Shown: in pieces, positions 1-15,795 of the stretch | Numbering within the stretch: the first letter of the stretch is position 1 | How the letters are laid out: each line of letters begins with the position of its first letter | From: an uncultured archaeon | GTDB taxonomy: Archaea; Asgardarchaeota; Thorarchaeia; Thorarchaeales; Thorarchaeaceae | Assembly: GCA_964354495.1 (NCBI GenBank) | Contig: CAYHAA010000017.1 | Span: forward strand, 1 to 32,000 | Direction of reading: 5' to 3' | DNA: 32,000 bases | Program-made: the position numbers and the translations under genes | The notes under the pieces: model-generated | What the model was told of the DNA's origin: nothing | The model's input: the letters and a program-made list of their open reading frames with translations, nothing else | Database searches by the model: none

Positions 1-201
1 CAACTCTAGGTACTGTATGAACACACTTTCAGTCTGCACGCCTCGGACATTAGTAGTGGTGAGCTGAACACCTCGCCGGAGCTTGGTACTTACACCCCCA
101 CCCTATTAACCTCGTCTTCTACGAGAGTCCTCGTTCCTAGACTCGACGTTACTGTCACCAGTCGCATCGTCTTTTACAGATCGTCTAGCAAGTGGATATC
201 T
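1..201 (-). repeat. Direct repeat copy A: displaced 3' end of 23S rRNA plus trailer (probably continues left of the window)
   Basis: 1-137 aligns to 12657-12793 with 2 mismatches (88, 108). 188-201 (gcaagtggatatct) aligns to 12877-12890 (gcaaatggatatct). The interior differs. Confidence 0.95.
32..201 (-). pseudogene. 23S rRNA 3'-terminal fragment with a short ES39 variant
   Basis: Homology to the 3' end of the intact 23S. No upstream rRNA sequence beyond position 201. Confidence 0.85.
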
Positions 202-420
202 TTGACCCATTTCCACAGTGTGAGTGAACTAACTGTGAGAAACTTCTATGTTCCACCCTTCCCTTGCTCGTGTCACCACTTCCTACATTCCAATGGAATG
301 TAGAATTAGCAAGAGCTTTGTCAACTATCATCGGGATGGAATCCCTCCTGAGGACCGGGCTTCGTTCTCCTGTGTTGATATTGGTTCATCACTTCCAACC
401 ACAGAGAGAGTTTCCATAGT
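202..420 (-). ncRNA. Putative TnpB omega-RNA scaffold (5' limit unknown)
   Basis: Position at the tnpB 3' end/right end. Stems ctacattcc(283-291)/ggaatgtag(295-303) nested in cttgct(263-268)/agcaag(308-313), plus the terminal hairpin 214-237. Confidence 0.5.
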
Positions 421-1980
421 CTTTGCCACGGCGAGGTCATCATCACTCATCTTGGAGTCGTCACCGAAACCAAGAAGGTCCTTCTGGACAAAGTGAATAG
501 CCGCGGACTCTCTAGAACCTGATGTTGGTTCCTTCGCAGAGAGTAAGGACTTCCCATGAGAAGGTATCTTCTTTCGGGCTTTCAGTCGTGAGTGTTTCCC
601 TGCTTGTACAGAGTCTTCCCACTTACCTAGTCCTCTCACAGAGTGCAGTGACTTTGTGAGCGTGATGAGGCGTCCGGCAATGTTGATGGCTCCATTCCTG
701 TCTGCATTGGTCTTGTGACCACACAAAGGACATCGAAAGTAGTTCTGTTTTGGTCGTACCCCCTTTGTACCGCATTTCCAACACATGATGGATGTCCAAG
801 CTTCAGGCACTACTTGGAATCTCGATTCTTTTCCTTCAGTGGTCCATCCTCTTTGAGCCAATCCATGTCTGAAACTGTCTGTGATTCGTGCAAAGGCCCA
901 AGAGTGAATCATTCCTCTAAACTGTCTTCCTTTGAAATTCCCTTTCCGAGCCACAATTCGAATATTCTTCAAGCGACCAATCGATACATAGACTGTATAT
1001 CTCCCTGAGAGTTCCTCAATGTAGTTTAGGAGGTTCCTGACTAGAATACGGTCATACTCTCGAGCAATATTCTCACGTCTATGCCGAATTTGTCGAAGCT
1101 TCTGAAAGACCCCATCTAGGTCATCTTTTGTGAGAGTCTTTCGTTGAAGGTCAGCCACGAGCTGGTCGTATCTCTTGATGATTTCGACCTTGTCCTTCTG
1201 TTTGAAGTATCTCGTTTCACCAACCTTCTCAGGAGTGACCAATGTTGTACAAGCGGCTTTCTCAATACCCAAGTCTACTCCAAGAACTGCGGGAGGAAGA
1301 GATGTATCAGGAACTTCATCTATGGTAACGCTAACTGCAAAATTGACCCACCACTTACCTGAACGGTCGGTGAAAATCTGACATGCCTTTACTTCACCAC
1401 GATGAAACTGGTTGACATGGAATGGGGACACTTTCAGAGGTATGATCAGTCTATCATGAAATGTTCTTCCTTCAGGAACAGAATCTAGAGAGTTCCGAAG
1501 GTTGAGCTGCCACCCAGAGTAATGTTCAAGTTTGAACCGTTGATTAAACACCCATCGAGGAATTCTTCTTGAGAAGTTAGTCCTGGTGGGTCGAGAAGCA
1601 TTCCATCCTTTCTTATCTCTCAGTGCCAAGTAACTCTCATAGAGAGCAACTGCTGTCTGCCTACACTCCTGCAGCTCATTGGTTGAAATTCTTGGGAATC
1701 TCTTCTTTATGTCATGGGGAACAGACGGTCTTTGACCATACCCGGCTTTTGTTTTGAGTGCGGTCATCGTGAGCTCGTCTAGTTTTCCATCATGAATCCG
1801 ATTTTTGTTACGACCTGTCAACAACTTGTTTTCATGTTGTTCAATTATTCCAAGGAATGCACGAATCACTCTCGTGTCCCTTCCAACAATCTGCCTCAAT
1901 CTCTGTTGAGTTCGTTGTGTCATCGACTCCCACTTTATTGGGATTTTAACACTGATTGTTGTTCCACGGGACCGAGCCAT
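328..1980 (-). CDS. tnpB: TnpB RNA-guided endonuclease with rearranged RuvC (550 aa)
   Basis: RuvC-I LGVDLG, RuvC-II IGRL (Gly for Glu), VPEAWTS, CWKC/CPLC zinc finger, RuvC-III NADRNGAINI. Confidence 0.92.
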   Translation of the reverse strand: MARSRGTTISVKIPIKWESMTQRTQQRLRQIVGRDTRVIRAFLGIIEQHENKLLTGRNKNRIHDGKLDELTMTALKTKAGYGQRPSVPHDIKKRFPRISTNELQECRQTAVALYESYLALRDKKGWNASRPTRTNFSRRIPRWVFNQRFKLEHYSGWQLNLRNSLDSVPEGRTFHDRLIIPLKVSPFHVNQFHRGEVKACQIFTDRSGKWWVNFAVSVTIDEVPDTSLPPAVLGVDLGIEKAACTTLVTPEKVGETRYFKQKDKVEIIKRYDQLVADLQRKTLTKDDLDGVFQKLRQIRHRRENIAREYDRILVRNLLNYIEELSGRYTVYVSIGRLKNIRIVARKGNFKGRQFRGMIHSWAFARITDSFRHGLAQRGWTTEGKESRFQVVPEAWTSIMCWKCGTKGVRPKQNYFRCPLCGHKTNADRNGAINIAGRLITLTKSLHSVRGLGKWEDSVQAGKHSRLKARKKIPSHGKSLLSAKEPTSGSRESAAIHFVQKDLLGFGDDSKMSDDDLAVAKTMETLSVVGSDEPISTQENEARSSGGIPSR

Positions 1981-2232
1981 CGTTTACCAACCTTATAAAT
2001 TTCTGACCCGTTTCGGCCAGTCGAGTTCACTCCCCTACTTGTTTACAATAGAGGTTATGTACTCATATTTTCTCTATTACCGAACCTTATAAATTTATTA
2101 AGCAGAAAGAGCTCATAATACTTTATTTGCTATTTAAAAGTCATATATTGCTTTATTTCATTAAAATAGATATTCGTATTGAACTCTAAATCCTTATAAA
2201 TTATTGATAGATTTTGTTCAAGAGGTAAGAAA

Positions 2233-5200
2233 ATGGGTCGCAGACCGAAGACGTTCCAACCAAATGCAGTCCTTCAGTCTGCAATCTATTCGGGACTTGC
2301 AGCTTTAGCACGTCTAGCACGAGGACGAGTCCGAAGTAAGAAGAAGAAATACTACAAGAGTATTGAAAAGAACTGGATGAAAGCCTGGAAGAAGTGGGAA
2401 GAGTCCAGACTACTTGATCCCTATGACTTCTCATCTATCCAGAATGCAGAACCAAACCTTCGAGGTGCCTTTCTCAATCTACTATGGCAGTCAACCAGGC
2501 GTTATGGTAACAGAGAAAACAAGAGAGTGTACAGCTGGTTGGAGGGTACCGTTGGACCACTCAACGCCTTACTGAACTATGCAGGTGCCCGTCTCCGTGA
2601 CCTTGCCCTAACACACTATCAGTTTCCAGAGCCAATATATTATGAAGTCAGAGTCTATGATAAGATTACCACCAAGGTTTTTCCCAAGAATATAGCCAAG
2701 TTGTATCCTGATCCTAATGCGGTCAAGACATACAACAAGGCTGGCTATCCAGGAAACCAGTTCGGTCCTAGAATACTCTTGGCTCATCCCACTCTCCCTG
2801 GAATGGACTTTGTAGACATGATTCGTGCCCACCTCGTCGAGCTCTGCAAACAGCTCTTCATCTACAACGTCCCGCGTACTGAGGCACACAGGTACATCAG
2901 ACTTCTCATCCACAAGCTCCGACCGTACCTCGACTGGGTATATACTCAAGGAAGGACAGGTAAGAAGAACTTCAATCCTGAGAGCGACAGGGAACTAAAA
3001 GAAATCGTGAATGAAACAAAGGCATTTCATGGAAAGAATGTTGGTCGACACAAGTCAGTCACAGAAACAATAGAAGGTAGTCAACTGCCAGACACTATCA
3101 AAGAAGTGAGAGGGGAGATCGAACAAAAGCTCAAGGAAACAAGGGACAAGACAGAGAAAAAACGCATCAAGGAGATCTTGGACCAGATAGACCAAGAGAC
3201 CCTACAGGACAAAGACGCTCAGATACTCAGGGACCAAGTGTTGAGTTTGAGTCAGCAAGAGGGTAATTATTGGCATAGGATACTACTTTCAGACCTGCAT
3301 CATCCAGCCTCTCTAAAGCAGGTAGTCTTTGCAGGGGACAAGATGCTTGAAGAACCATCACCAGTTTTGATTGTAGGAGAGCTACCAGTAGAAAAACGAA
3401 CAGGACAGATCGATATCACATTCTTTCTCAGAAGAGAGATACCGGGACAGACCATTATGACCCCCATACTCATTCTAGAGATAAAGAGCAAGACTGGGTT
3501 CAGCTATAACCTCTATGGAGTCCGAACAAGGAACAAGAAGAAGAAGGATTATGGACCAAGACTGTTTGCATGGAAGAGGAAACTCAATGATCATGAATGG
3601 AACGTAATATCAAAGGCAAAACCACTGAAGGACACGATGGACCAACTCGATGCATATGAAACAATATTGTTGCAGGAGTATAGGAGTCTAGTTCCTTCAG
3701 ATCCCACTCCTCCAAAAAAGTTGTGGAAAGGTGTCATTGTATTAGACACAGATCAGAAACCTTTGGATGTCTTTGATGCATTCTATGACCTGCTGGATGA
3801 ATTGGTCACTGCTCTGGTCAATGGCATGGTCGACTCCAGCAGTCTCACTTCGTACATCTCAGACCCTAACAGTGATCTCAGAATGGCCCTCATTCTGACT
3901 CCATCTGAGGGGCCTTCTGAACTCGTACAGCAGATGAGCCCTCCTGAAAACATTACAGAAGAAGATCCATTCCAAGACCGGGTTTCGGACGATAGGATAC
4001 TCACACTCTATGTGTCTGTCCCCTCTTCAACCTCTTCTGGAAACGCAGCAGCAGGGATATCGACGAACTGGCATCTCATTCACCACATCAAGGATTGCAT
4101 TGAGAAAATGTCAGAGAAAACGGAGGTCTACTGGTTGGACCTTATGGGTACCTACAAAGAGATCGAAACGGAATACTCTGAGAACCAAAAAGATGCAGAT
4201 GAATCTGATGACAGGGAAGATGAGCGAATCCACCTCATCAACAAAAGGTTTGGACTTGACAAGATGCTGAGGGAGAGAGAAATATCTCGGAGAACTCACA
4301 GACGATTGACGGATCTTCTTAAGAGAATTAAGTTCGTGGACTTGAGCTCTGAGATAGACTCCATCCTCCTTAAGAACGAAACCGATTTCTCAGAAATCGT
4401 CGACACTGTTCAGTCCAATGTTCCTTCAGACAGAAACACTGAGAAAATCATTGTCCTAGATGGTTGGTCAGAATTCGCAAATCTGGTTTCAAGGGAACAC
4501 AGACCATTAGTGAGTGGTCTTGAACGGACCTTCCTCGATGTCCTTCCAGAGAAAGACACTGAATTGATTTGGATAGACAGTGGGGTTTCTCACACACGGA
4601 TGAACCCGACATATCAGCGGACGTGTATCCGACCCATACCACATGATTCGCACCGAAGGAAACATCTGGACGAGATTATATACAACATACCAACAACCCC
4701 ACGTGTCTTTGGTTGGCAGACTCCTAGAAGAGAGGATATTCGTGTCATCATCCAGGACACACCGACCTCGGCAGACCCATGGTCGCAGATCATTGATGTT
4801 CCCCTCCTCAGGAATATGACAAGGAAAGTTCGAGGTGTGTCAAAAAGAGATGGACTTGCGTCAGATGATGGCTTAATACAGCCAGCTCACTTTACGCCGA
4901 TGTATGGTAGAGGAATCACACTCTCAACTATAGCTACTTCTATGTACCCCCTGACAGAAGACACAGTTGAACAGATCAAGAAAGATTCGGTGACACTGAT
5001 TCCCAGCACCATCAGGTCAAGAAGGAAGGAACCTGAGGAAGAAGTAACTGAGGTTGATGAAGAGGAAGAAGAGGCCAAGAGGGAAATAGACATTCATGTT
5101 ATTGCTTCGCCATCAAAGACCTTTTCTCTAACGAGACGATTGGTCTTAGATCCAACACACCCACCTCCACCTCATCCCAGGGCACGAGAGCAGTATCATG

Positions 5201-7941
5201 AGGTAAAGAAAATCAATAGAGCCTGGTGTTATGATAGTTTTCCAGTAGAGGAGGAAGAGGAAGACTATCCGGTTTTGAAACCTCCACTTATCGAGTTGAC
5301 CACCAGTCAAGAAATCGATACAACGACGTGTAGGGAACTGGAACTGCGGCGGACTCTATATACAGCACAGTATCTGATGAGGAAACTTCCCTCCTATGAA
5401 GACCTGTATCACTGTTGTGAGAGGATTGTCAACACAGTTTCCCCGATTCTGAAGAAAAAGAGGGAAATGAAGACTGGGCTGGTATTACTCCGCCTCCTTA
5501 AAGATGTGCGGAGTCTAATTAGGGAGGAGTCGGGGAGTAGACAGGTCTGGGAAACACTACTTCCAATGAGGAAGGACCTAGTCACACTCCTAAACTCCGA
5601 AAACAGGAAGTCACTGGAAGACACGCTGGCACAGAACTCAGATGTCCTCGAACTTTATGGCAACAACCTATTCCTTACAATGTGTGCCACTATGGATGAG
5701 CTTCTATCGGAGGAGGCTCTGAGGCCTGCAATGGCCATTCAGCTCTGGTCAGCCATAGCACAGTGGGTTCCCTATCAACTCGGTTTCAAAACGCAGTCAA
5801 CCATGATCACATCAAAGTACGACTTACGGGCAATCCACTCAGACCTCCGTTTGAGGATCAAGTCACTAGTGAATAGGGTTCCAGTAATCCAAAGATTAGA
5901 GATCCAAAACTACGGACAAATGCTATGGTCTGAAGAAGAGGGAATCTTCTCGTCGTGGATCATCTTTCCCAGCGCAGAAGAGATGGTAGGAGGATATGTC
6001 ACAGGACTTGGAGAACCATTCCTCCGTGCCAAGTGGTATGACTGTGTCAAGGATGCGGGAATGCAGAAGTTCTCTGCAAGAAAAGCAGCAAGTTCTACTA
6101 CACGTACTCCGATAATGACCCAACAGTATGGGAGTGAAACCATTCTCTGGGTGTTGTGTGAAGATGATGAGGAAGCAGGTTTGTTTTGGCTTCCCTTCAT
6201 ACTTGAGTATCCCTCGAGTAAGAATGTGCTGTTACCTTGGTTCAAACTCTCAGAACTGTCTTCTTCATCATTCGCAGAACTGCAACCCCCAACCTCTGTG
6301 GAAGTCCCTCCGTATACTGTGAGGAACATTGACAGGTTCCTACAGTCTGTTATTGAAACGACTAAAGACCCTATCGAGGTGACCTGTGAGGTATCAATAG
6401 ATCTTGAGAGTAAGTTGTTTCAGATTGACTTCACTCAAGGTGGGAAGATCATTGAAACCTTCAAGTGCAAGGAAACCTACAAACTCCTTCGGACTCTCAG
6501 ACATCCCATCAGGACTGGTTTTGGATATGAAACATCAAGTGGAAACCTGTTGACATGGGACCACAGAAATGATATCGAATACCATGATGTGACAGTGAAG
6601 AGAAACGATGGGAGAAAAGAAACCATCTCCCTTACTCTTCTCAAACCCTTCGTCCATCGAAGCAGGTTCTTTCCTGACGAATACAGCATTCCCAAGACCT
6701 GTAGTGAGCTGTTGTCCACAGAAGAGTGTGATATGTTGACATTATTATTCGTGCCAGAGGACTCCAGCTTCAGGTCAATAAGATTGGAGTTTGATGGACT
6801 CCCATCTGGTTCTTCTTTGCATGCCCTTGAAACTGTATGCATGAACATCTATGATGTTGCGCTTTTGACAGAGTGTGAGCAGCTGGTTGATACGGCGAGA
6901 GGGACTCGACACCGTATGGATATCAACGCTAAAGGACTCTTTGATCTCCAGTTCTCTAGGCTGAGCGACTACCCTCGATTGCAGGAAGCAATCAAAGATT
7001 TGGATATTAGTGACTATGACTGGTCAAGAGACCCGTGGACAATCAAAATTGACACTACCATAGTGAACAAGAACGAAATACGATGGTACCTAATGTCCGG
7101 GTCTGGAATGGTATGGCAGAAGAAGGTGTATGACTTCGTCATGGATTACACACTCAGCATTAACGAGGTCATCAATGAATTTGAAGAGGTGGTGGACAAG
7201 ACTATCCCTCTGAAGCACATCTCAGGACTCTCAGAAGTCATTGCTAGCCTGAGGAGTACACTTCGTGATCAGGGTTGGAGAAAGGGAAAGCCGCGATGTA
7301 GGATCATTCTTGAGGAAAGGGGAGGAGGGTATGTAGCGGTGGTCAATAGGCTGGGACCAAAGAGAATTTCGACTGAGATTGACAGCTTTCCTATTGATAT
7401 GATGATTGATGAGGAAGTCTTGAGTGAAGAGTTGGGAGGAGAGTGGGGACTTCTTTCTAGGTTTGATGTGGTGAACTTGGAGGAGTTCTATGAGGCTGTT
7501 TCCATTGCCGCATCTGGAGTTGAAATGGAAGACAATAGTGACAGCGAGCTTGATGAGGAGGCTGAGTTGCTCCAAGTAATCAGTGAGTGGAGAGAGGAGA
7601 AGAAGCATCCCTTTGCGCAGAGATTTCTTGGTGAAACTCTTGCGCAACTAGCGAGTCTTTACTTATCACAGAATAGGCTCCTTGAAGCATTGAATTTTGC
7701 AGAGGAATCTGTAAATATTCTTCAAGCATGGGATGAAGGTGGTCCAAGTGTCAGACTATCCCTAGCAAGAGCTTTTGCTGTGAAAGCAGACGTCTTCCTG
7801 ATTGAGAAAAGGGACATTTCTGAGGTCAAGAGTCTTCTACAGAAAGCCCATGAGCAGATTGGTTCATTAAAGCCTGACATTAGTGTTTCGAAAGTTAGTA
7901 AGTGGATAGAAAAGTTATCAAGAAGAGTCAGTAGTGAGTGA
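2233..7941 (+). CDS. Giant hypothetical protein (1902 aa): PD-(D/E)xK nuclease motif, degenerate RecA-like NTPase, C-terminal TPR-like helices
   Basis: Uninterrupted 5.7 kb ORF. GELPV..QIDITF..ILEIKSK motif, EVYWLDLMGT and KIIVLDGWSEF strands, TPR-like LAQLASLYLSQNRLLEALNFAEES. Confidence 0.8.
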   Translation: MGRRPKTFQPNAVLQSAIYSGLAALARLARGRVRSKKKKYYKSIEKNWMKAWKKWEESRLLDPYDFSSIQNAEPNLRGAFLNLLWQSTRRYGNRENKRVYSWLEGTVGPLNALLNYAGARLRDLALTHYQFPEPIYYEVRVYDKITTKVFPKNIAKLYPDPNAVKTYNKAGYPGNQFGPRILLAHPTLPGMDFVDMIRAHLVELCKQLFIYNVPRTEAHRYIRLLIHKLRPYLDWVYTQGRTGKKNFNPESDRELKEIVNETKAFHGKNVGRHKSVTETIEGSQLPDTIKEVRGEIEQKLKETRDKTEKKRIKEILDQIDQETLQDKDAQILRDQVLSLSQQEGNYWHRILLSDLHHPASLKQVVFAGDKMLEEPSPVLIVGELPVEKRTGQIDITFFLRREIPGQTIMTPILILEIKSKTGFSYNLYGVRTRNKKKKDYGPRLFAWKRKLNDHEWNVISKAKPLKDTMDQLDAYETILLQEYRSLVPSDPTPPKKLWKGVIVLDTDQKPLDVFDAFYDLLDELVTALVNGMVDSSSLTSYISDPNSDLRMALILTPSEGPSELVQQMSPPENITEEDPFQDRVSDDRILTLYVSVPSSTSSGNAAAGISTNWHLIHHIKDCIEKMSEKTEVYWLDLMGTYKEIETEYSENQKDADESDDREDERIHLINKRFGLDKMLREREISRRTHRRLTDLLKRIKFVDLSSEIDSILLKNETDFSEIVDTVQSNVPSDRNTEKIIVLDGWSEFANLVSREHRPLVSGLERTFLDVLPEKDTELIWIDSGVSHTRMNPTYQRTCIRPIPHDSHRRKHLDEIIYNIPTTPRVFGWQTPRREDIRVIIQDTPTSADPWSQIIDVPLLRNMTRKVRGVSKRDGLASDDGLIQPAHFTPMYGRGITLSTIATSMYPLTEDTVEQIKKDSVTLIPSTIRSRRKEPEEEVTEVDEEEEEAKREIDIHVIASPSKTFSLTRRLVLDPTHPPPPHPRAREQYHEVKKINRAWCYDSFPVEEEEEDYPVLKPPLIELTTSQEIDTTTCRELELRRTLYTAQYLMRKLPSYEDLYHCCERIVNTVSPILKKKREMKTGLVLLRLLKDVRSLIREESGSRQVWETLLPMRKDLVTLLNSENRKSLEDTLAQNSDVLELYGNNLFLTMCATMDELLSEEALRPAMAIQLWSAIAQWVPYQLGFKTQSTMITSKYDLRAIHSDLRLRIKSLVNRVPVIQRLEIQNYGQMLWSEEEGIFSSWIIFPSAEEMVGGYVTGLGEPFLRAKWYDCVKDAGMQKFSARKAASSTTRTPIMTQQYGSETILWVLCEDDEEAGLFWLPFILEYPSSKNVLLPWFKLSELSSSSFAELQPPTSVEVPPYTVRNIDRFLQSVIETTKDPIEVTCEVSIDLESKLFQIDFTQGGKIIETFKCKETYKLLRTLRHPIRTGFGYETSSGNLLTWDHRNDIEYHDVTVKRNDGRKETISLTLLKPFVHRSRFFPDEYSIPKTCSELLSTEECDMLTLLFVPEDSSFRSIRLEFDGLPSGSSLHALETVCMNIYDVALLTECEQLVDTARGTRHRMDINAKGLFDLQFSRLSDYPRLQEAIKDLDISDYDWSRDPWTIKIDTTIVNKNEIRWYLMSGSGMVWQKKVYDFVMDYTLSINEVINEFEEVVDKTIPLKHISGLSEVIASLRSTLRDQGWRKGKPRCRIILEERGGGYVAVVNRLGPKRISTEIDSFPIDMMIDEEVLSEELGGEWGLLSRFDVVNLEEFYEAVSIAASGVEMEDNSDSELDEEAELLQVISEWREEKKHPFAQRFLGETLAQLASLYLSQNRLLEALNFAEESVNILQAWDEGGPSVRLSLARAFAVKADVFLIEKRDISEVKSLLQKAHEQIGSLKPDISVSKVSKWIEKLSRRVSSE

Positions 7942-8301
7942 CCCTACCTCACTTCTGTCGATGAAGATTAAAGGTAGTAAGATAGTAAGTTGAGGAATGT
8001 CTATTAGTTTCTACTCCGAATCAGGTAAAGATTGGTATCGCCCCATACTCCAATGCGCTCCTCCTCTGGAAGTCTGTCCATAACAAGTAGAGCCCATCTG
8101 ATGTCATGAAGGAGACCTCAGCTTTCGGATGGAATCTTCAACGATTAATGGACCTTAAATAACTCGTCATCATAGATGCATTTTTCTGGGCGACTTGGAC
8201 TGAAACCCCACATACAGACATACTAACAACAGAGCAACGGGATATGGGAAGCCTTGAGTGAAGTATAAAAGAGACTGCTAGAAAGATGATATCGGAGGGA
8301 A

Positions 8302-9303
8302 GTGACGTTCAAACCATACAAACTCAGTAAGGATGCTATATCGGCAGTGAAGCAGATAATAGGTTATAGAAGTACTCCGATGGAAGACAGACCACAAGTA
8401 GAAGATATGTTTCATACATCATTTGGAAAAACACTTGGTAGTCAAGTTGGTGAAATTCTAGATTTTGCAAAGAGAGGACAAATTCTCCTAATAATACTTC
8501 CACTCACTAAAATCATAGAGAAATTACAGAAATTCATTCAAGATGGAAGTTATCTTAAGGCTGTGGAAAGCGCTCTATCACCCAAAGACATTGATAAGAT
8601 GAAGGCCTTTGAGGTTGTCATGCAGGATGTCGATGTTGGGGACACTGTAGACACTGTGGAAGAATTGATAATCCAAGACGATGAGCTCTGGTACCTGTCA
8701 TTGATAACATTTACAGTGTATGCGTATGTGGATGTTTACTCGAAGAGTCTAATCAAAAGTCTGACATCAAATCCACTACTGATGCAGAAATTAGAAACAT
8801 ATCTTGAAAGAGAAGCGCTTCATAATAAAGACGATATAGAGAGAAAATATGTCACATCAGTTACAGATCTCTCGCAGTATGGAGTTAGTCGGAGGCTTCG
8901 GACCATAGAAATAGGTCTGTCAATAGACCGGATTTTATCTGAGGTTACAAATCAAGATATTCTTAGCATAATTAGAAGTAGCTTTATCAAAATCATAAAA
9001 ACAAGACATGAAATTGCACATAGAGATCCAAAGTTGAAAAGAGATGACTACACATATGAGATGTTTGAGGATATTTCAAACGCTGTCGAGGAATTGGATT
9101 TCACTTTTAATGAGATAGAAGAAATGTTTGGTTTTTTGAAACCAATATTCGGCACAATCGAGGATCTAGGAAAGCAGACAATGGATAGAATTAAGAGAAC
9201 TATGAATATTGCCTACATGACAGTGCTGTATCCAGCATTAATTGATGTAGTAGTTCATGATTTGGTAACTTGCACAACTAGGGATTCACATCACACAATG
9301 TGA
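8302..9303 (+). CDS. HEPN-domain protein (putative RNase/toxin)
   Basis: Helical protein with an intact Rx4H motif (KTRHEIAHRDP). Confidence 0.75.
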   Translation: MTFKPYKLSKDAISAVKQIIGYRSTPMEDRPQVEDMFHTSFGKTLGSQVGEILDFAKRGQILLIILPLTKIIEKLQKFIQDGSYLKAVESALSPKDIDKMKAFEVVMQDVDVGDTVDTVEELIIQDDELWYLSLITFTVYAYVDVYSKSLIKSLTSNPLLMQKLETYLEREALHNKDDIERKYVTSVTDLSQYGVSRRLRTIEIGLSIDRILSEVTNQDILSIIRSSFIKIIKTRHEIAHRDPKLKRDDYTYEMFEDISNAVEELDFTFNEIEEMFGFLKPIFGTIEDLGKQTMDRIKRTMNIAYMTVLYPALIDVVVHDLVTCTTRDSHHTM

Positions 9304-9628
9304 TAAATGCAGAGTAGACCTATGACCTATTAGAGAGATGCGAAAAATCGAGATAGAGTATGCAACAGGAGATAGGACAACAGACTACTACTATTCCTGT
9401 GTTTCAGAAGATGGGGCTATTGTTTTCAAGCCAGAACCTATCACTATCAAAAGCCTAATCAATTTAACTTCAAAGTGCTAATTGCCATCATCCATCTCGT
9501 TCGTTGTGAATGTTCCACATTGTAAAGCATCCAAGGATTCCTAACCCAATATCATGGTCAGTAACCATAGAGCCATAGTGGGACGTCCCAAGGTTGTGTG
9601 TGCAAACTTCCAATTGTTCTATTGAACC

Positions 9629-10822
9629 TCACCATCTCCAATTGTCTACATGATAATCCCACAATCCAACACACATTTTCAATGATTCGCGAATTCGAAG
9701 CTTATCATCTTCTGATTTACAGCTTAAGAAGACTTTGTATAGATGAGGAACCGTTACAAGACAAATCTTCAATTGTTCTGCCATCTTCACAACCGAATCT
9801 TCGTAAGCTTTTGATAAATCACGGTCATTCGGATGAATATGGTACCAGGGATTGAGAATGAATATTCCCCTAATCTTCTCTCGATCGTCAATTAAATACT
9901 CTAACACTTGACGAAATTTCGTCTTCCCCAGACTGCCTTTTTTTCCAGTACACTCAATTCTTGCTTTATAGTCACCATCATTAATCTCGATATCTTCTAA
10001 CCACTTAGTTTCCTTATATTCTGCATGAAATCCTAGAGATTGAAGGATAGTAGTAACCTTGTGTGAGAGAGAATGACCATGATCAGCAAGAATACTCTTC
10101 TCTTTTTCGATTTCATCTAGCTTATTCCTTATGTCGTGCAGTTGACATCTGAGCTTCTCTTCATCACGAATGAAAATAGAATCAAGCCAGGATGGTCTTT
10201 CGTGGGATGGATTCCAAAAAGGTGGTAGGATATTTTCAATAATCTGCTTCAAGTAAAAAGACAACATCTTCCTTGATGATGGATTTGATTCATTTAGCAT
10301 AATTTGTCTTGTGGGCGGAATAATCAATAATCGACCTTTCCTATGTTGATAGACCAGTGAAATACAAGTTCCACCTACTCCCTGCATTAGAATATGGGCA
10401 GTTGAAGGAAGTGGGTTAAATTCAACAGAAGATACGAGATTGTTTTGCAGTCCAAATAAAAATGATTTGATCCAATGTGGTTGTTCCTTATGAAACCGCA
10501 CTTCTGATTCATTAAGATAACGTATCGATTTCCCTAGACTTTTAACCCATGGTAAGAAGTGATAGTTTGAAATCTTCTCAGAAACCATCTTTGGTGGTGC
10601 GCTAACGACAACTAGAATTCCTCCATTGTCTTCAATGAAATCTATTATGTTGATAATTCGAACAATCGTTTCTTCATCATAGACCTCGTTCAGGTTGAGA
10701 ATGACTACATCATCAGATTCCATTTCCAGTGATTTCTCAGGAAATTTTGAATGCCAACTATATCTAATTCCCAACCCGTTTTGAGGGCTTTCTCCGAAAC
10801 CAATGATTAGAAGATTCGGCAT
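9629..10822 (-). CDS. GATase/ThuA-like N-terminal domain fused to a restriction-endonuclease-like C-terminal domain
   Basis: IIDFIEDNGGILVVVS motif, coiled-coil linker, and LQSLGF..EDIEI..ARIECTGK..FRQVLEY resembling Mrr-like PD-(D/E)xK domains. Confidence 0.6.
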   Translation of the reverse strand: MPNLLIIGFGESPQNGLGIRYSWHSKFPEKSLEMESDDVVILNLNEVYDEETIVRIINIIDFIEDNGGILVVVSAPPKMVSEKISNYHFLPWVKSLGKSIRYLNESEVRFHKEQPHWIKSFLFGLQNNLVSSVEFNPLPSTAHILMQGVGGTCISLVYQHRKGRLLIIPPTRQIMLNESNPSSRKMLSFYLKQIIENILPPFWNPSHERPSWLDSIFIRDEEKLRCQLHDIRNKLDEIEKEKSILADHGHSLSHKVTTILQSLGFHAEYKETKWLEDIEINDGDYKARIECTGKKGSLGKTKFRQVLEYLIDDREKIRGIFILNPWYHIHPNDRDLSKAYEDSVVKMAEQLKICLVTVPHLYKVFLSCKSEDDKLRIRESLKMCVGLWDYHVDNWRW

Positions 10823-11055
10823 TATATCAACTCCTTACACACAGATGTCAATTCTTCTATAAGAGGAATATCTCTCTTATCATTAGCTGTTGGTCTGGCA
10901 CTTGAACAAAAGTGCTAATGTTCATGTGTTTAGAGATATTGTCCAGCTTAGAATTAACAATGCAAGACTAGATACACATCTGTATGCCTTGTAACACCTG
11001 AAGTACATAGCTTCGTTCTCTGCAAGTGTTTCATTGGTCATTGTGATTTCCTCCA

Positions 11056-12213
11056 TCAATCATAGTAGTCATCTACGAATGTGTTGTAACCATACTCCCC
11101 AAGATAGGGAGAGTGTCCATCTCGTTCAAGTTCTTCGAACTCTTCCTCAATCTCGTCCACCTTGCCAAGAGCGTATTCATGCTCTGGATCATGGACAAGT
11201 GCTTCTAGATACATGTCCAGTGCATACTTCTTAAGCCCAGCATCATAGAATAGCTGTTCCTGTTCACAGATGATATTGGGGTCTTTCGGGTCCAAGGCAA
11301 AGGCTCGATTGACGGCATCCTCATAGAGGTCATAATTAGTGTGTACCTGTGAGAGTTCGTACCAAGCCTGAGCATCCTTGGGCATGAGTCGAGTTGCCAT
11401 CTCAATGCACATGATGGTCTCCCATCGTCGGTCGTATCTCTCAAAGACATCTGCAAGGACGACCCATGCTCCAAGGTCATTTCTCCCAATATCGAGAGCG
11501 TCACGGATCCTACGTCTCTCTGTCTTACGCTTACTCTTGGGACCTTCTATTGATGATTGAAGGAGAGATAAGGCATCCTTTGTTCTATCAAGTCGGAAGA
11601 GGATGAGGCCTAGAGAGAATTGTATAGTCAGCTCTTCAGGTGCAAGTGTGCGTGCCTCCTGCAGGAGACCCAATCCCTCTCTCTCTTTGCCCAGTTCTAC
11701 GAGGGCTAAACCAAGGAATTGGAGGGCACGTGGTGTTATTTTAATCTCTAGAGACTTGTCAAGAGCTTCCTTACACTCCTTCCATTTCCTTTGAAAATAG
11801 TACGCTACTCCTACCTCGGTCCAGTGATCAAAAATCTCAGGTTGAATCTTACATGCTTTTCCGAAGGCTTGACTAGCATTATAGTATGCATGTTCTATCA
11901 TCTCGATTATTCCTAGATGGAACCAGGCGGCACTGTTCTTTGGATTGAGTTAGGTTGCATTCTTGAGAACTACATCGATGTTGTGCCATCTCTCAATCTC
12001 CATACATCTTCTTGCATAATGCAGGTAGGCTATGGATGTCTTTTGCTTCTTTCTTGATCTTGCTTCTAGTTCCTTGGCTTCACCGAATAGTTCCTCCGGA
12101 CTCGATAGATAGATACGCTCAACCTCTTCTTCATCAAGTTCCAGACCAGTATAGGAGTTTACATCCCATGATACCCACATCAGCTCGTTTCTCCACAGAA
12201 TAAAGGTACACAA
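11056..12213 (-). pseudogene. TPR-repeat protein interrupted by an in-frame TAA (11950-11952)
   Basis: ORFs 11950-12213 and 11056-11901 are in frame. The 16 intervening codons (LNPKNSAAWFHLGIIE) continue a TPR motif. Confidence 0.75.
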
Positions 12214-12641
12214 GAATAGTTAGATGTTGTTTCAAAGCCACATTGCTTACAATATGATTCTAATAGATGTGAAACGGTTTTAGACTTCGTTAATACACTA
12301 AATCGAAATTATGAAGAACACTTTATGAATTTGCGACAATTATAGGTTTTATTGAGAGTTCTTAGAGTCCTAATTTGCAAAACTCCAGTTTTTCAATCTA
12401 ATCAACCATTCAAACCTTGAGTTCGAATCCTTTCACTGTGATCTCGTAGGGAATCACATCCTTCGAGTGTATAGCTACTCGCCATTTGATAGTGAATACT
12501 TGAGATGCCCCTTCTGTATAGTAAAGCAAATTCTCCCATCCTGTGATTGGATTGTGACTACTGGATATTAGGATTAGGAATCACAACCCTAACCTCTCTT
12601 CTTATATTAGAAAAACAGACAACAGGGGATGGAAGTACTTT

Positions 12642-12666
12642 AACAAAACCCCTAGACAACTCTAGG
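12642..12666 (-). terminator. Hairpin plus T-tract downstream of 23S
   Basis: cctaga(12651-12656)/tctagg(12661-12666) followed on the minus strand by GGTTTTGTT. Confidence 0.5.
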
Positions 12667-12687
12667 TACTGTATGAACACACTTTCA

Positions 12688-15794
<3,107 letters not shown>

Positions 15795-15795
<1 letters not shown>

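Follow-up and report, generated by a model that had tools for sequence, protein, structure and literature searches.

The locus that we studied raised the question of why a TnpB-family gene ended directly on a piece of 23S rRNA, and whether that piece could serve as the guide of an RNA-guided nuclease. The window that we analysed comprised the initial 32 kb of contig C17 in the 51-contig genome of an Asgard (Thorarchaeota) archaeon. In Rfam, family RF02540 covered 12687-15795 of the minus strand as a full 23S gene (2482.9 bits over model positions 1-2987), and a second, short match fell at 45-134 on the same strand. By alignment, this second copy ran from 201 down to 1, position 1 being the contig start. 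The window was thus a MAG contig that ended inside the 23S repeat, and its join to contig C32, discussed below, was inferred.

Read on the minus strand from 240 to 182, the junction consisted of a hairpin (CACAGT, a loop with GTTCACTCAC, ACTGTG), followed by GAAATGGGTCAA and then by AGATATCCACTTGCTAGACG. All the sequence statements that the first-pass annotation had made about 182-237 were borne out by this reading. The 20 nt directly past the scaffold end (182-201, minus strand, read directly from the sequence) formed a putative TnpB guide template. The resident counterpart of its target, GAAAAT plus a 20-mer, was located at 12871-12896 on the minus strand. There, the 20-mer from 12890 to 12871 was AGATATCCATTTGCCGAGCG and agreed with the guide at 15/20 positions, with mismatches at 10 and 15-18, which reproduced the earlier count for the intact gene.

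The gene at 328-1980 (minus strand) encoded a TnpB-family protein of 550 aa with a RuvC-II of the rearranged type. The protein matched the Cas12f1-like TNB domain of Pfam (7.6e-12) and the TnpB structure 9nzp from the PDB (7e-13), and its match to the NCBIfam guided_TnpB model (1.7e-25, 90.1 bits) was under the curated cut-off of that model, 100 bits. Among 33 homologs, the RuvC-I D236 (GxDLG) and the RuvC-III D427 (NAD) were invariant. The canonical position of the RuvC-II Glu was occupied by an invariant Gly (..IGRL..), and an invariant E393 was a possible substitute. The C4 zinc finger between RuvC-II and RuvC-III (CWKCG...CPxCG) was conserved. TnpB proteins with the Glu-to-Gly change form a published rearranged class (RIIr) that was predicted to be active with a relocated Glu. 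Judging from the conserved residues, the protein from the window may be active as well despite its non-canonical catalytic Glu. This genome contained ~9 further TnpB copies or pieces, and the family was present in 57/87 genomes of the order; most copies had open frames and showed no decay.

On the 3' side of the gene, an omega-RNA-like conserved 3' UTR scaffold occupied 202-327 of the minus strand, with GTTCACTCAC in its terminal hairpin and GGGTCA(A) at its end. When over 40 copies from the family were aligned in their 3' UTRs, a conserved structured region emerged that ended in (A/G)GGTYA, and immediately past this point, which in the window was 203/202, the flanks of the copies were unrelated. 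The structure was supported by covariation (14 of the 20 consensus pairs had compensatory changes in an alignment of 30 copies) and by a fold z-score of -2.96. Toward the 3' end the order was GTTCACTCAC in the covarying hairpin (216-225 of the minus strand in the window, and present in nearly all copies), then 8-22 nt, then (A/G)GGTYA. Rfam had no family for this scaffold. As in TnpB systems, a structured scaffold followed the gene and the guide started where the copies diverged. Thus, with the scaffold ending at 203/202, the 20 nt at 201-182 stood where a TnpB omega-RNA has its guide.

It had been cautioned that the TCAA at the junction could be a relic of the rRNA, given that GTCAAAG also occurs in the 23S gene. 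The motif was indeed present at 12905-12899, but the relic origin did not hold. The scaffold end at 203/202 coincided with the start of the 23S homology and GGTYA was kept family-wide, and therefore GGTCA(A) belonged to the element. The family end consensus was GGTYA plus one nucleotide and was only loosely similar to the TCAA of IS608. The 7 nt of GTCAAAG were found at 200-206 and at 12899-12905, that is, 10 nt upstream of the target. At the latter place they were common to this genome and a sister genome, its closest relative (G030), and most relatives had GCCAGAC there. Possibly, the motif shared by the junction and the 23S gene represented a microhomology.

Which of the two 23S tails was native could be decided by comparison with relatives. 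The body of the 23S gene (1410 nt before the site) had 98.8% identity to G030 and 95.5% to another relative, G042. The tail at the contig start (copy A, 1-201, minus strand), with a short ES39/H98 stem continuing to the 3' end, matched the tail of G030 at 94.5% identity along its full 201 nt. The tail of the full-length gene (copy B, 12611-12890, minus strand) contained a long ES39/H98 stem as in G042, the 3' end and ~75 nt beyond it (12611-12686), and had only its last ~148 nt in common with G030. Since the body and copy A were both G030-like, copy A was the former resident tail, now displaced, and copy B arrived with the element, making the full-length gene chimeric. On the same grounds, the reverse assignment, with copy A borne by the element and copy B native, was rejected.

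The stems of the two copies folded alike, and the guide mismatches 15-18 were compensated on the opposite strand; thus, the tail swap kept a working helix. These comparisons agreed with the proposals of the first-pass annotation that the rRNA fragment was a displaced tail and that the resident 3' end was recoded, the recoding taking the form of an imported unit. Its further proposal, that the guide fits un-invaded 23S alleles, was likewise upheld. The 20-mer matched the 23S gene of G030 at 20/20 positions and that of most of 13 genus relatives at 19/20, and AAAAT was located 5' of the site in all relatives compared.

The insertion spanned 202-12890, or 12,689 nt (12.7 kb), inside the 3' domain of the 23S gene, with the copy B tail at its left end and the TnpB scaffold at its right end. 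In G030, the 23S gene was followed by two tail fragments and then by housekeeping genes including ubiE. This order was syntenic with contig C32, and therefore 202-12890 was a single insertion. On C32, 23S-tail fragments were located at 9247-9453, at 11897-11987 and at the contig end (13207-13290), and housekeeping genes were found below 9132. The end fragment had an exact 41-nt overlap with positions 1-41 of C17. Based on this overlap and on the synteny with G030, C17 was joined to C32, and copy A probably continued into that contig. The overall layout was gene-restoring: copy B completed the gene, copy A was displaced and the empty site was available in G030.

Several genomes had 23S 3'-tail fragments arrayed behind their 23S gene, namely at C32:9247-13290, G030:C34:20977-22145, G046:C33:2504-5517 and on G053:C181. 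The fragments were 60-210 nt long and were spaced 0.8-2.4 kb apart; the spacers were unique, unrelated between genomes and contained only family-less ORFs. These arrays looked like a recurrent insertion hotspot or decayed remnants of earlier elements. A lone, diverged (~85%) 23S-tail fragment with its downstream flank was also found at C15:12077-12228 (L019), far from rRNA genes, among housekeeping neighbours (tRNA synthetase, amino-acid kinase, PolX).

Between copy B and the scaffold, the element contained a giant gene and four cargo ORFs. Of the latter, a 333-aa ORF at 8302-9303 (plus strand) had a weak HEPN (RiboL-PSP) match below the Pfam cut-off, a 397-aa ORF at 9629-10822 (minus strand) belonged to no family in Pfam, PHROGs, NCBIfam or PADLOC, and a 281-aa ORF at 11056-11901 (minus strand) had TPR repeats according to Pfam. 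The HEPN-like ORF next to family-less ORFs and a TPR protein was possibly defence or toxin-type cargo. Among the island ORFs there was no TnpA/Y1 transposase, PolB, TnsB, TnsC or TniQ family, and no tyrosine or serine recombinase in Pfam, PHROGs or NCBIfam. Terminal inverted repeats and 14-15-bp target duplications were not found; the repeats were gene segments of 50-280 nt. In the paralogous copies on contigs C6 and C27, homology ran past the TnpB start, through the intergenic region and into the giant gene, and there was no left end near 2040-2100. A conserved left end was also searched for between different elements and was found only in the orthologous pair C27/L071.

The giant gene (2233-7941, plus strand) encoded a protein of 1902 aa and was divergent from the TnpB gene. 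The intergenic region between them (1981-2232), which contained repeated TTTATAA-type boxes, was kept in paralogous pairs. Boxes of the AAATTTATAAGG type were located at 1996-2009, 2083-2096 and 2191-2200, in this region and upstream of it, and were likely archaeal TATA/BRE promoters for the TnpB and the giant gene. The giant protein had no match in Pfam, NCBIfam, PHROGs or PADLOC, a profile search of PDB sequences returned only noise, and the sole lead from the ESM Atlas was a weak one, to AAA_22 (0.75). The Pfam Cas1 model found nothing across the whole genome.

An AlphaFold (AF2) model of residues 1-880 (pLDDT 78.5) was more informative and suggested a layout with a Cas1-like catalytic domain at 1-253 and a RecA/RadA/KaiC-like ATPase at ~585-860. 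In a VIA search, residues 1-253 matched nine Cas1 and casposase entries in all, with Z of 12.8, 12.5, 12.2, 11.4, 10.9, 10.7, 9.8 and 9.5 for Cas1 and 10.6 for a casposase. The domain is helical, and Z of ~11-13 was only moderately above the helical-fold background; the domain was called Cas1-like from its fold and from motif likeness. Residues H185, D192, D195 and E203 of the protein were invariant. Residues 585-860 matched RecA, RadA, KaiC and DnaB ATPases, with Z up to 11.9 for RecA-like chains, and Foldseek on the model pointed to RAD51/RadA. A PD-(D/E)xK-like motif (D394..ExK418) was also seen, as a motif plus strand order only, and residues 881-1600 had no fold match.

Homologs of the giant gene adjoined TnpB on contigs C6, C27 and C31 and at 29 loci from other genomes. 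Giant paralogs with 24-26% identity and without a nearby TnpB in tblastn were also observed (C1:3111-5465, C3:79622-83872 and C44:2110-4683).

It had been asked whether close homologs of this tnpB also sit next to rRNA fragments. They did sit next to fragments of RNA genes, but these were tRNA genes rather than rRNA genes. Among 53 unique flanks, 17 matched a small tRNA/rRNA set, compared to 14/530 control windows, and 12 of the 17 matches started at most 8 nt from the scaffold end. On C27, the scaffold end abutted an intact tRNA-Gly(TCC) in the antisense orientation, and the displaced 3' half of this gene was 7.2 kb away, past the giant gene; locus L071 was orthologous. At locus L058, 22-nt exact tRNA-Asp repeats were 7.7 kb apart, and in other copies the scaffold end abutted pieces of tRNA-Arg(CCG), tRNA-Arg(TCG), tRNA-Ser and tRNA-Asp. 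A tRNA-Arg near the C6 copy was considered as well and did not account for the C6 flank.

At C27, L071 and L058, the tRNA-segment repeats bracketed the TnpB-giant pair, and the minimal element thus consisted of these two genes. As a general rule, TnpB was at one end and read outward, with the guide position within the repeat of the target gene. Its orientation to the target varied: TnpB read in the sense direction into the displaced 3' part, or antisense into the intact gene end or the 5' part. At C27 and L071, the guide was read from the intact gene copy and not from the displaced one, and therefore the displaced fragment was not the guide source in general. The 5' contexts of six inferred tRNA/rRNA targets gave no consistent TAM motif, and AAN in 4/7 was unconvincing. 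Junctions between the scaffold and 23S were searched for in 87 genomes of the order, where only the window was found in addition to one chance match in G024, and in one metagenome scan, which returned a single chance match of 22 nt. Since rRNA regions assemble poorly, the single 23S case was weak evidence either way.

Several other placements in the family were worth recording. About 7.2 kb upstream of the scaffold end at L071, a degenerate scaffold end (GGTTAACTAAC..CAGTCTAG) preceded the displaced tRNA-Gly fragment, which suggested that another such element had occupied this site earlier, and hence serial insertion. Five loci (L059, L063, L075, L028 and L046) had a common non-tRNA flank, GTAAAGCCTTTGTAGATACAAAG.. 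with a small hairpin, right after GGTTA, and this flank may be another conserved target. At L089, ARAGORN with the intron option called a tRNA-Asp with a 2.4-kb 'intron' that contained a TnpB copy. This call may be artefactual, or a TnpB unit may be housed in a tRNA gene.

The element in the window belongs to the Asgard aCas1-TnpB association. It had a gene beside tnpB that was Cas1-like by fold and motif, GTTCACTCA downstream of tnpB, and flanking repeats. The source of the Cas1 homologs (the Cas1H-Asgard groups) was reportedly the work of Makarova et al. 2020. The association itself in Asgard archaea and its flanking repeats have already been published, and the text consulted describes the GTTCACTCA motif for these loci (Altae-Tran et al. 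2023, PMC10691335). According to that text, the published loci were similar to ours in the Asgard host, the Cas1-like neighbour, GTTCACTCA downstream of tnpB and the repeats. However, the guide proposed there was a hypervariable stretch upstream of GTTCACTCA, whereas the flanks in our alignment diverged downstream, after GGTYA. In addition, the Cas1-like domain was here the N-terminus of a 1600-1900-aa protein with a RecA-like ATPase. The text of PMC10691335 that was consulted did not mention tRNA/rRNA targets, gene-end replacement or adjacency of scaffold and target. More generally, the aCas1-TnpB literature consulted did not describe tRNA/rRNA targeting, replacement of the gene end or a guide that coincides with its target.

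The first-pass annotation had viewed the junction in the frame of IS608 and ISDra2, and this frame did not fit because TnpA was lacking and a Cas1-like partner was present instead. The element was similar to IS200/IS605 and IS607 elements in the TnpB fold, the zinc finger, the scaffold encoded at the 3' end of the gene and running to the element end, and a guide represented by the flanking DNA that names the empty site. In contrast to them, it had no TnpA and no pair of left- and right-end hairpins, was 7-13 kb long with a Cas1-like partner and cargo, was bordered by long gene-segment repeats rather than seamlessly inserted, and had a rearranged RuvC-II.

We regarded the anatomy, the boundaries, the family placement and the sequence matches as solid. 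The explanation that we favoured, with a probability of roughly 0.55, was an RNA-gene-targeting aCas1-TnpB integrative element in the 23S gene, whose TnpB guide names the unoccupied site and would direct TnpB to cut it, thereby aiding retention or copying of the element. The element would have entered between ...GAAAAT and AGATATCC..., with the giant Cas1-like protein as the candidate integrase. By carrying a substitute 23S tail on the left, the element would keep the gene whole, and the original tail would be pushed to the right end. With TnpB as the last gene and reading outward, the transcript would run on past the scaffold end at 203/202 into the repeat, and the displaced tail would supply the guide sequence. 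Such a guide would spell the unoccupied 23S allele and would have 5/20 mismatches to the resident recoded tail. RNA-guided cutting of the TnpB type could then act on unoccupied alleles, for example on further copies of the genome, in revertants or in incoming relatives, and would favour retention or copying of the element. Meers et al. 2023 reportedly demonstrated homing and retention by TnpB cutting for IS605/IS607.

Two features would protect the occupied chromosome: the scaffold-side copy lacked AAAAT, and the resident tail differed from the guide at five positions, including position 10. The homing or gene-drive model of the first-pass annotation would thus be a plausible fit to the design of the element. 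For this reading, we infer transcription of the guide, nuclease activity, a TAM and the homing outcome.

The main rival was an arrangement similar to CRISPR-associated transposons (CAST), in which TnpB and its omega-RNA would mark the tRNA/rRNA site, the Cas1/RecA-like giant protein would perform the insertion, possibly aided by the gene segment that the element carries, acting as a homology arm, and the guide would be a by-product. We considered it doubtful. Like the type V-K CAST that home to tRNA genes, the element combined a protein of the TnpB/Cas12 lineage with a fixed guide directed at the RNA-gene attachment site of its carrier. The strict pairing of TnpB with a Cas1-like and RecA-like protein, the target-gene segment that always adjoined the scaffold, and the loss of the canonical RuvC-II Glu would all suit this arrangement, as would the absence of a conserved left end. 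So would the long flanking repeats (50-280 nt), which were imperfect and variable in extent as if from a single crossover. However, the crossover in the window fell in the initial 9 nt of the repeat, an awkward position for homology-driven exchange. Moreover, the RuvC-I and RuvC-III Asp and the alternative Glu were invariant, unlike in the nuclease-dead Cas12k, the Tn7-type proteins (TnsB, TnsC and TniQ) were lacking, and coupling of a Cas1/RecA-like protein to TnpB had no experimental precedent. CAST also insert downstream of the gene, whereas here the insertion was within the gene and its end was replaced.

Plain site-specific integration appeared unlikely. In this scheme, an attP gene segment borne by the element would be recombined with an attB RNA gene, either by the giant protein or by some host factor, and TnpB would be a passenger at the element edge whose rRNA guide has no role. 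The layout was the classical one of archaeal and bacterial integrative elements at tRNA genes: element DNA completes the gene, a fragment remains at the far end, and repeated insertion gives tandem arrays. The 23S-tail arrays of several genomes could be a recombination hotspot without TnpB. On the other hand, such elements use a tyrosine or serine integrase that was not found here, and the 23S target with its swapped ES39/H98 stem was also different. A passenger would hardly be expected to have its scaffold end coincide with the repeat boundary to the nucleotide in the window, to abut tRNA pieces in 12/53 flanks, or to be kept without decay at the outward-reading terminal position.

Two other groups of integrating elements shared part of this layout. 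Casposons have a Cas1-family protein as integrase, here only a candidate, and some of them are located at tRNA 3' ends, similar to the gene-end preference of our family. In contrast to casposons, the element had no PolB, no TIR or 14-15-bp duplications were found, and a TnpB partner was present. The aloposons of Heimdallarchaeia (Wu et al. 2022, PMC8813620), compared by description only, are likewise Asgard elements with giant genes and integration at tRNA sites. They carry tandem genes for 3000-6000-aa proteins and a ParA-like set, with no TnpB mentioned.

It was very improbable that the junction was an accident, that is, an rRNA relic of GTCAAAG with a 10-nt deletion or an assembly artefact, leaving no 23S guide. 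The presence of GTCAAAG in the 23S gene and the position of the junction, 201 nt from the end of a MAG contig, would be compatible with this. However, GGTYA was the conserved scaffold end of the family, the 7 nt shared by the TnpB end and the 23S gene were too few for a k-mer chimera, and unique sequence at 138-201 spanned the junction. Finally, the second model of the first-pass annotation, an ordinary ~1.9-kb IS of the IS200/IS605 type inserted at TTTAT|AGATATCC at the island edge and guarding only its own excision site, was hardly tenable: a TnpB gene whose 3' scaffold terminates in ..TCAA and a TTTAT-rich region upstream (~2080-2200) would suit it, but paralog homology continued past 2040-2100 into the giant gene, the island had no TnpA/Y1, the pair was kept in 29 loci, minimal elements consisted of TnpB and the giant gene within tRNA repeats, and the comparison with G030 indicated a single insertion.

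Our preferred reading therefore remained an aCas1-TnpB element that targets RNA genes and whose guide names the unoccupied site. A more speculative extension, which we put forward only tentatively, was that one carried gene segment may serve as the TnpB guide, the homology arm and the replacement part at once, with TnpB finding the tRNA or rRNA gene, the Cas1/RecA-like partner installing the element, and the element's version replacing the gene end. If this were true, these elements would carry variant ES39 segments and halves of tRNAs from one Asgard lineage to another.

The aCas1-TnpB association thus gained a concrete anatomy, including a target class, exact boundaries, an empty site and a candidate guide. 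The window also provided a case of an rRNA gene that was made chimeric by a mobile element, which brought in a different ES39/H98 stem. Such a chimeric 23S gene bears on the variation of rRNA expansion segments in Asgard archaea and on the trust placed in rRNA trees. If TnpB cuts or marks the unoccupied site, then a gene-drive-like or CAST-like design would have been built from TnpB and Cas1. In that case, the origin of RNA-guided transposition would be directly testable, with both the guide and the target known.
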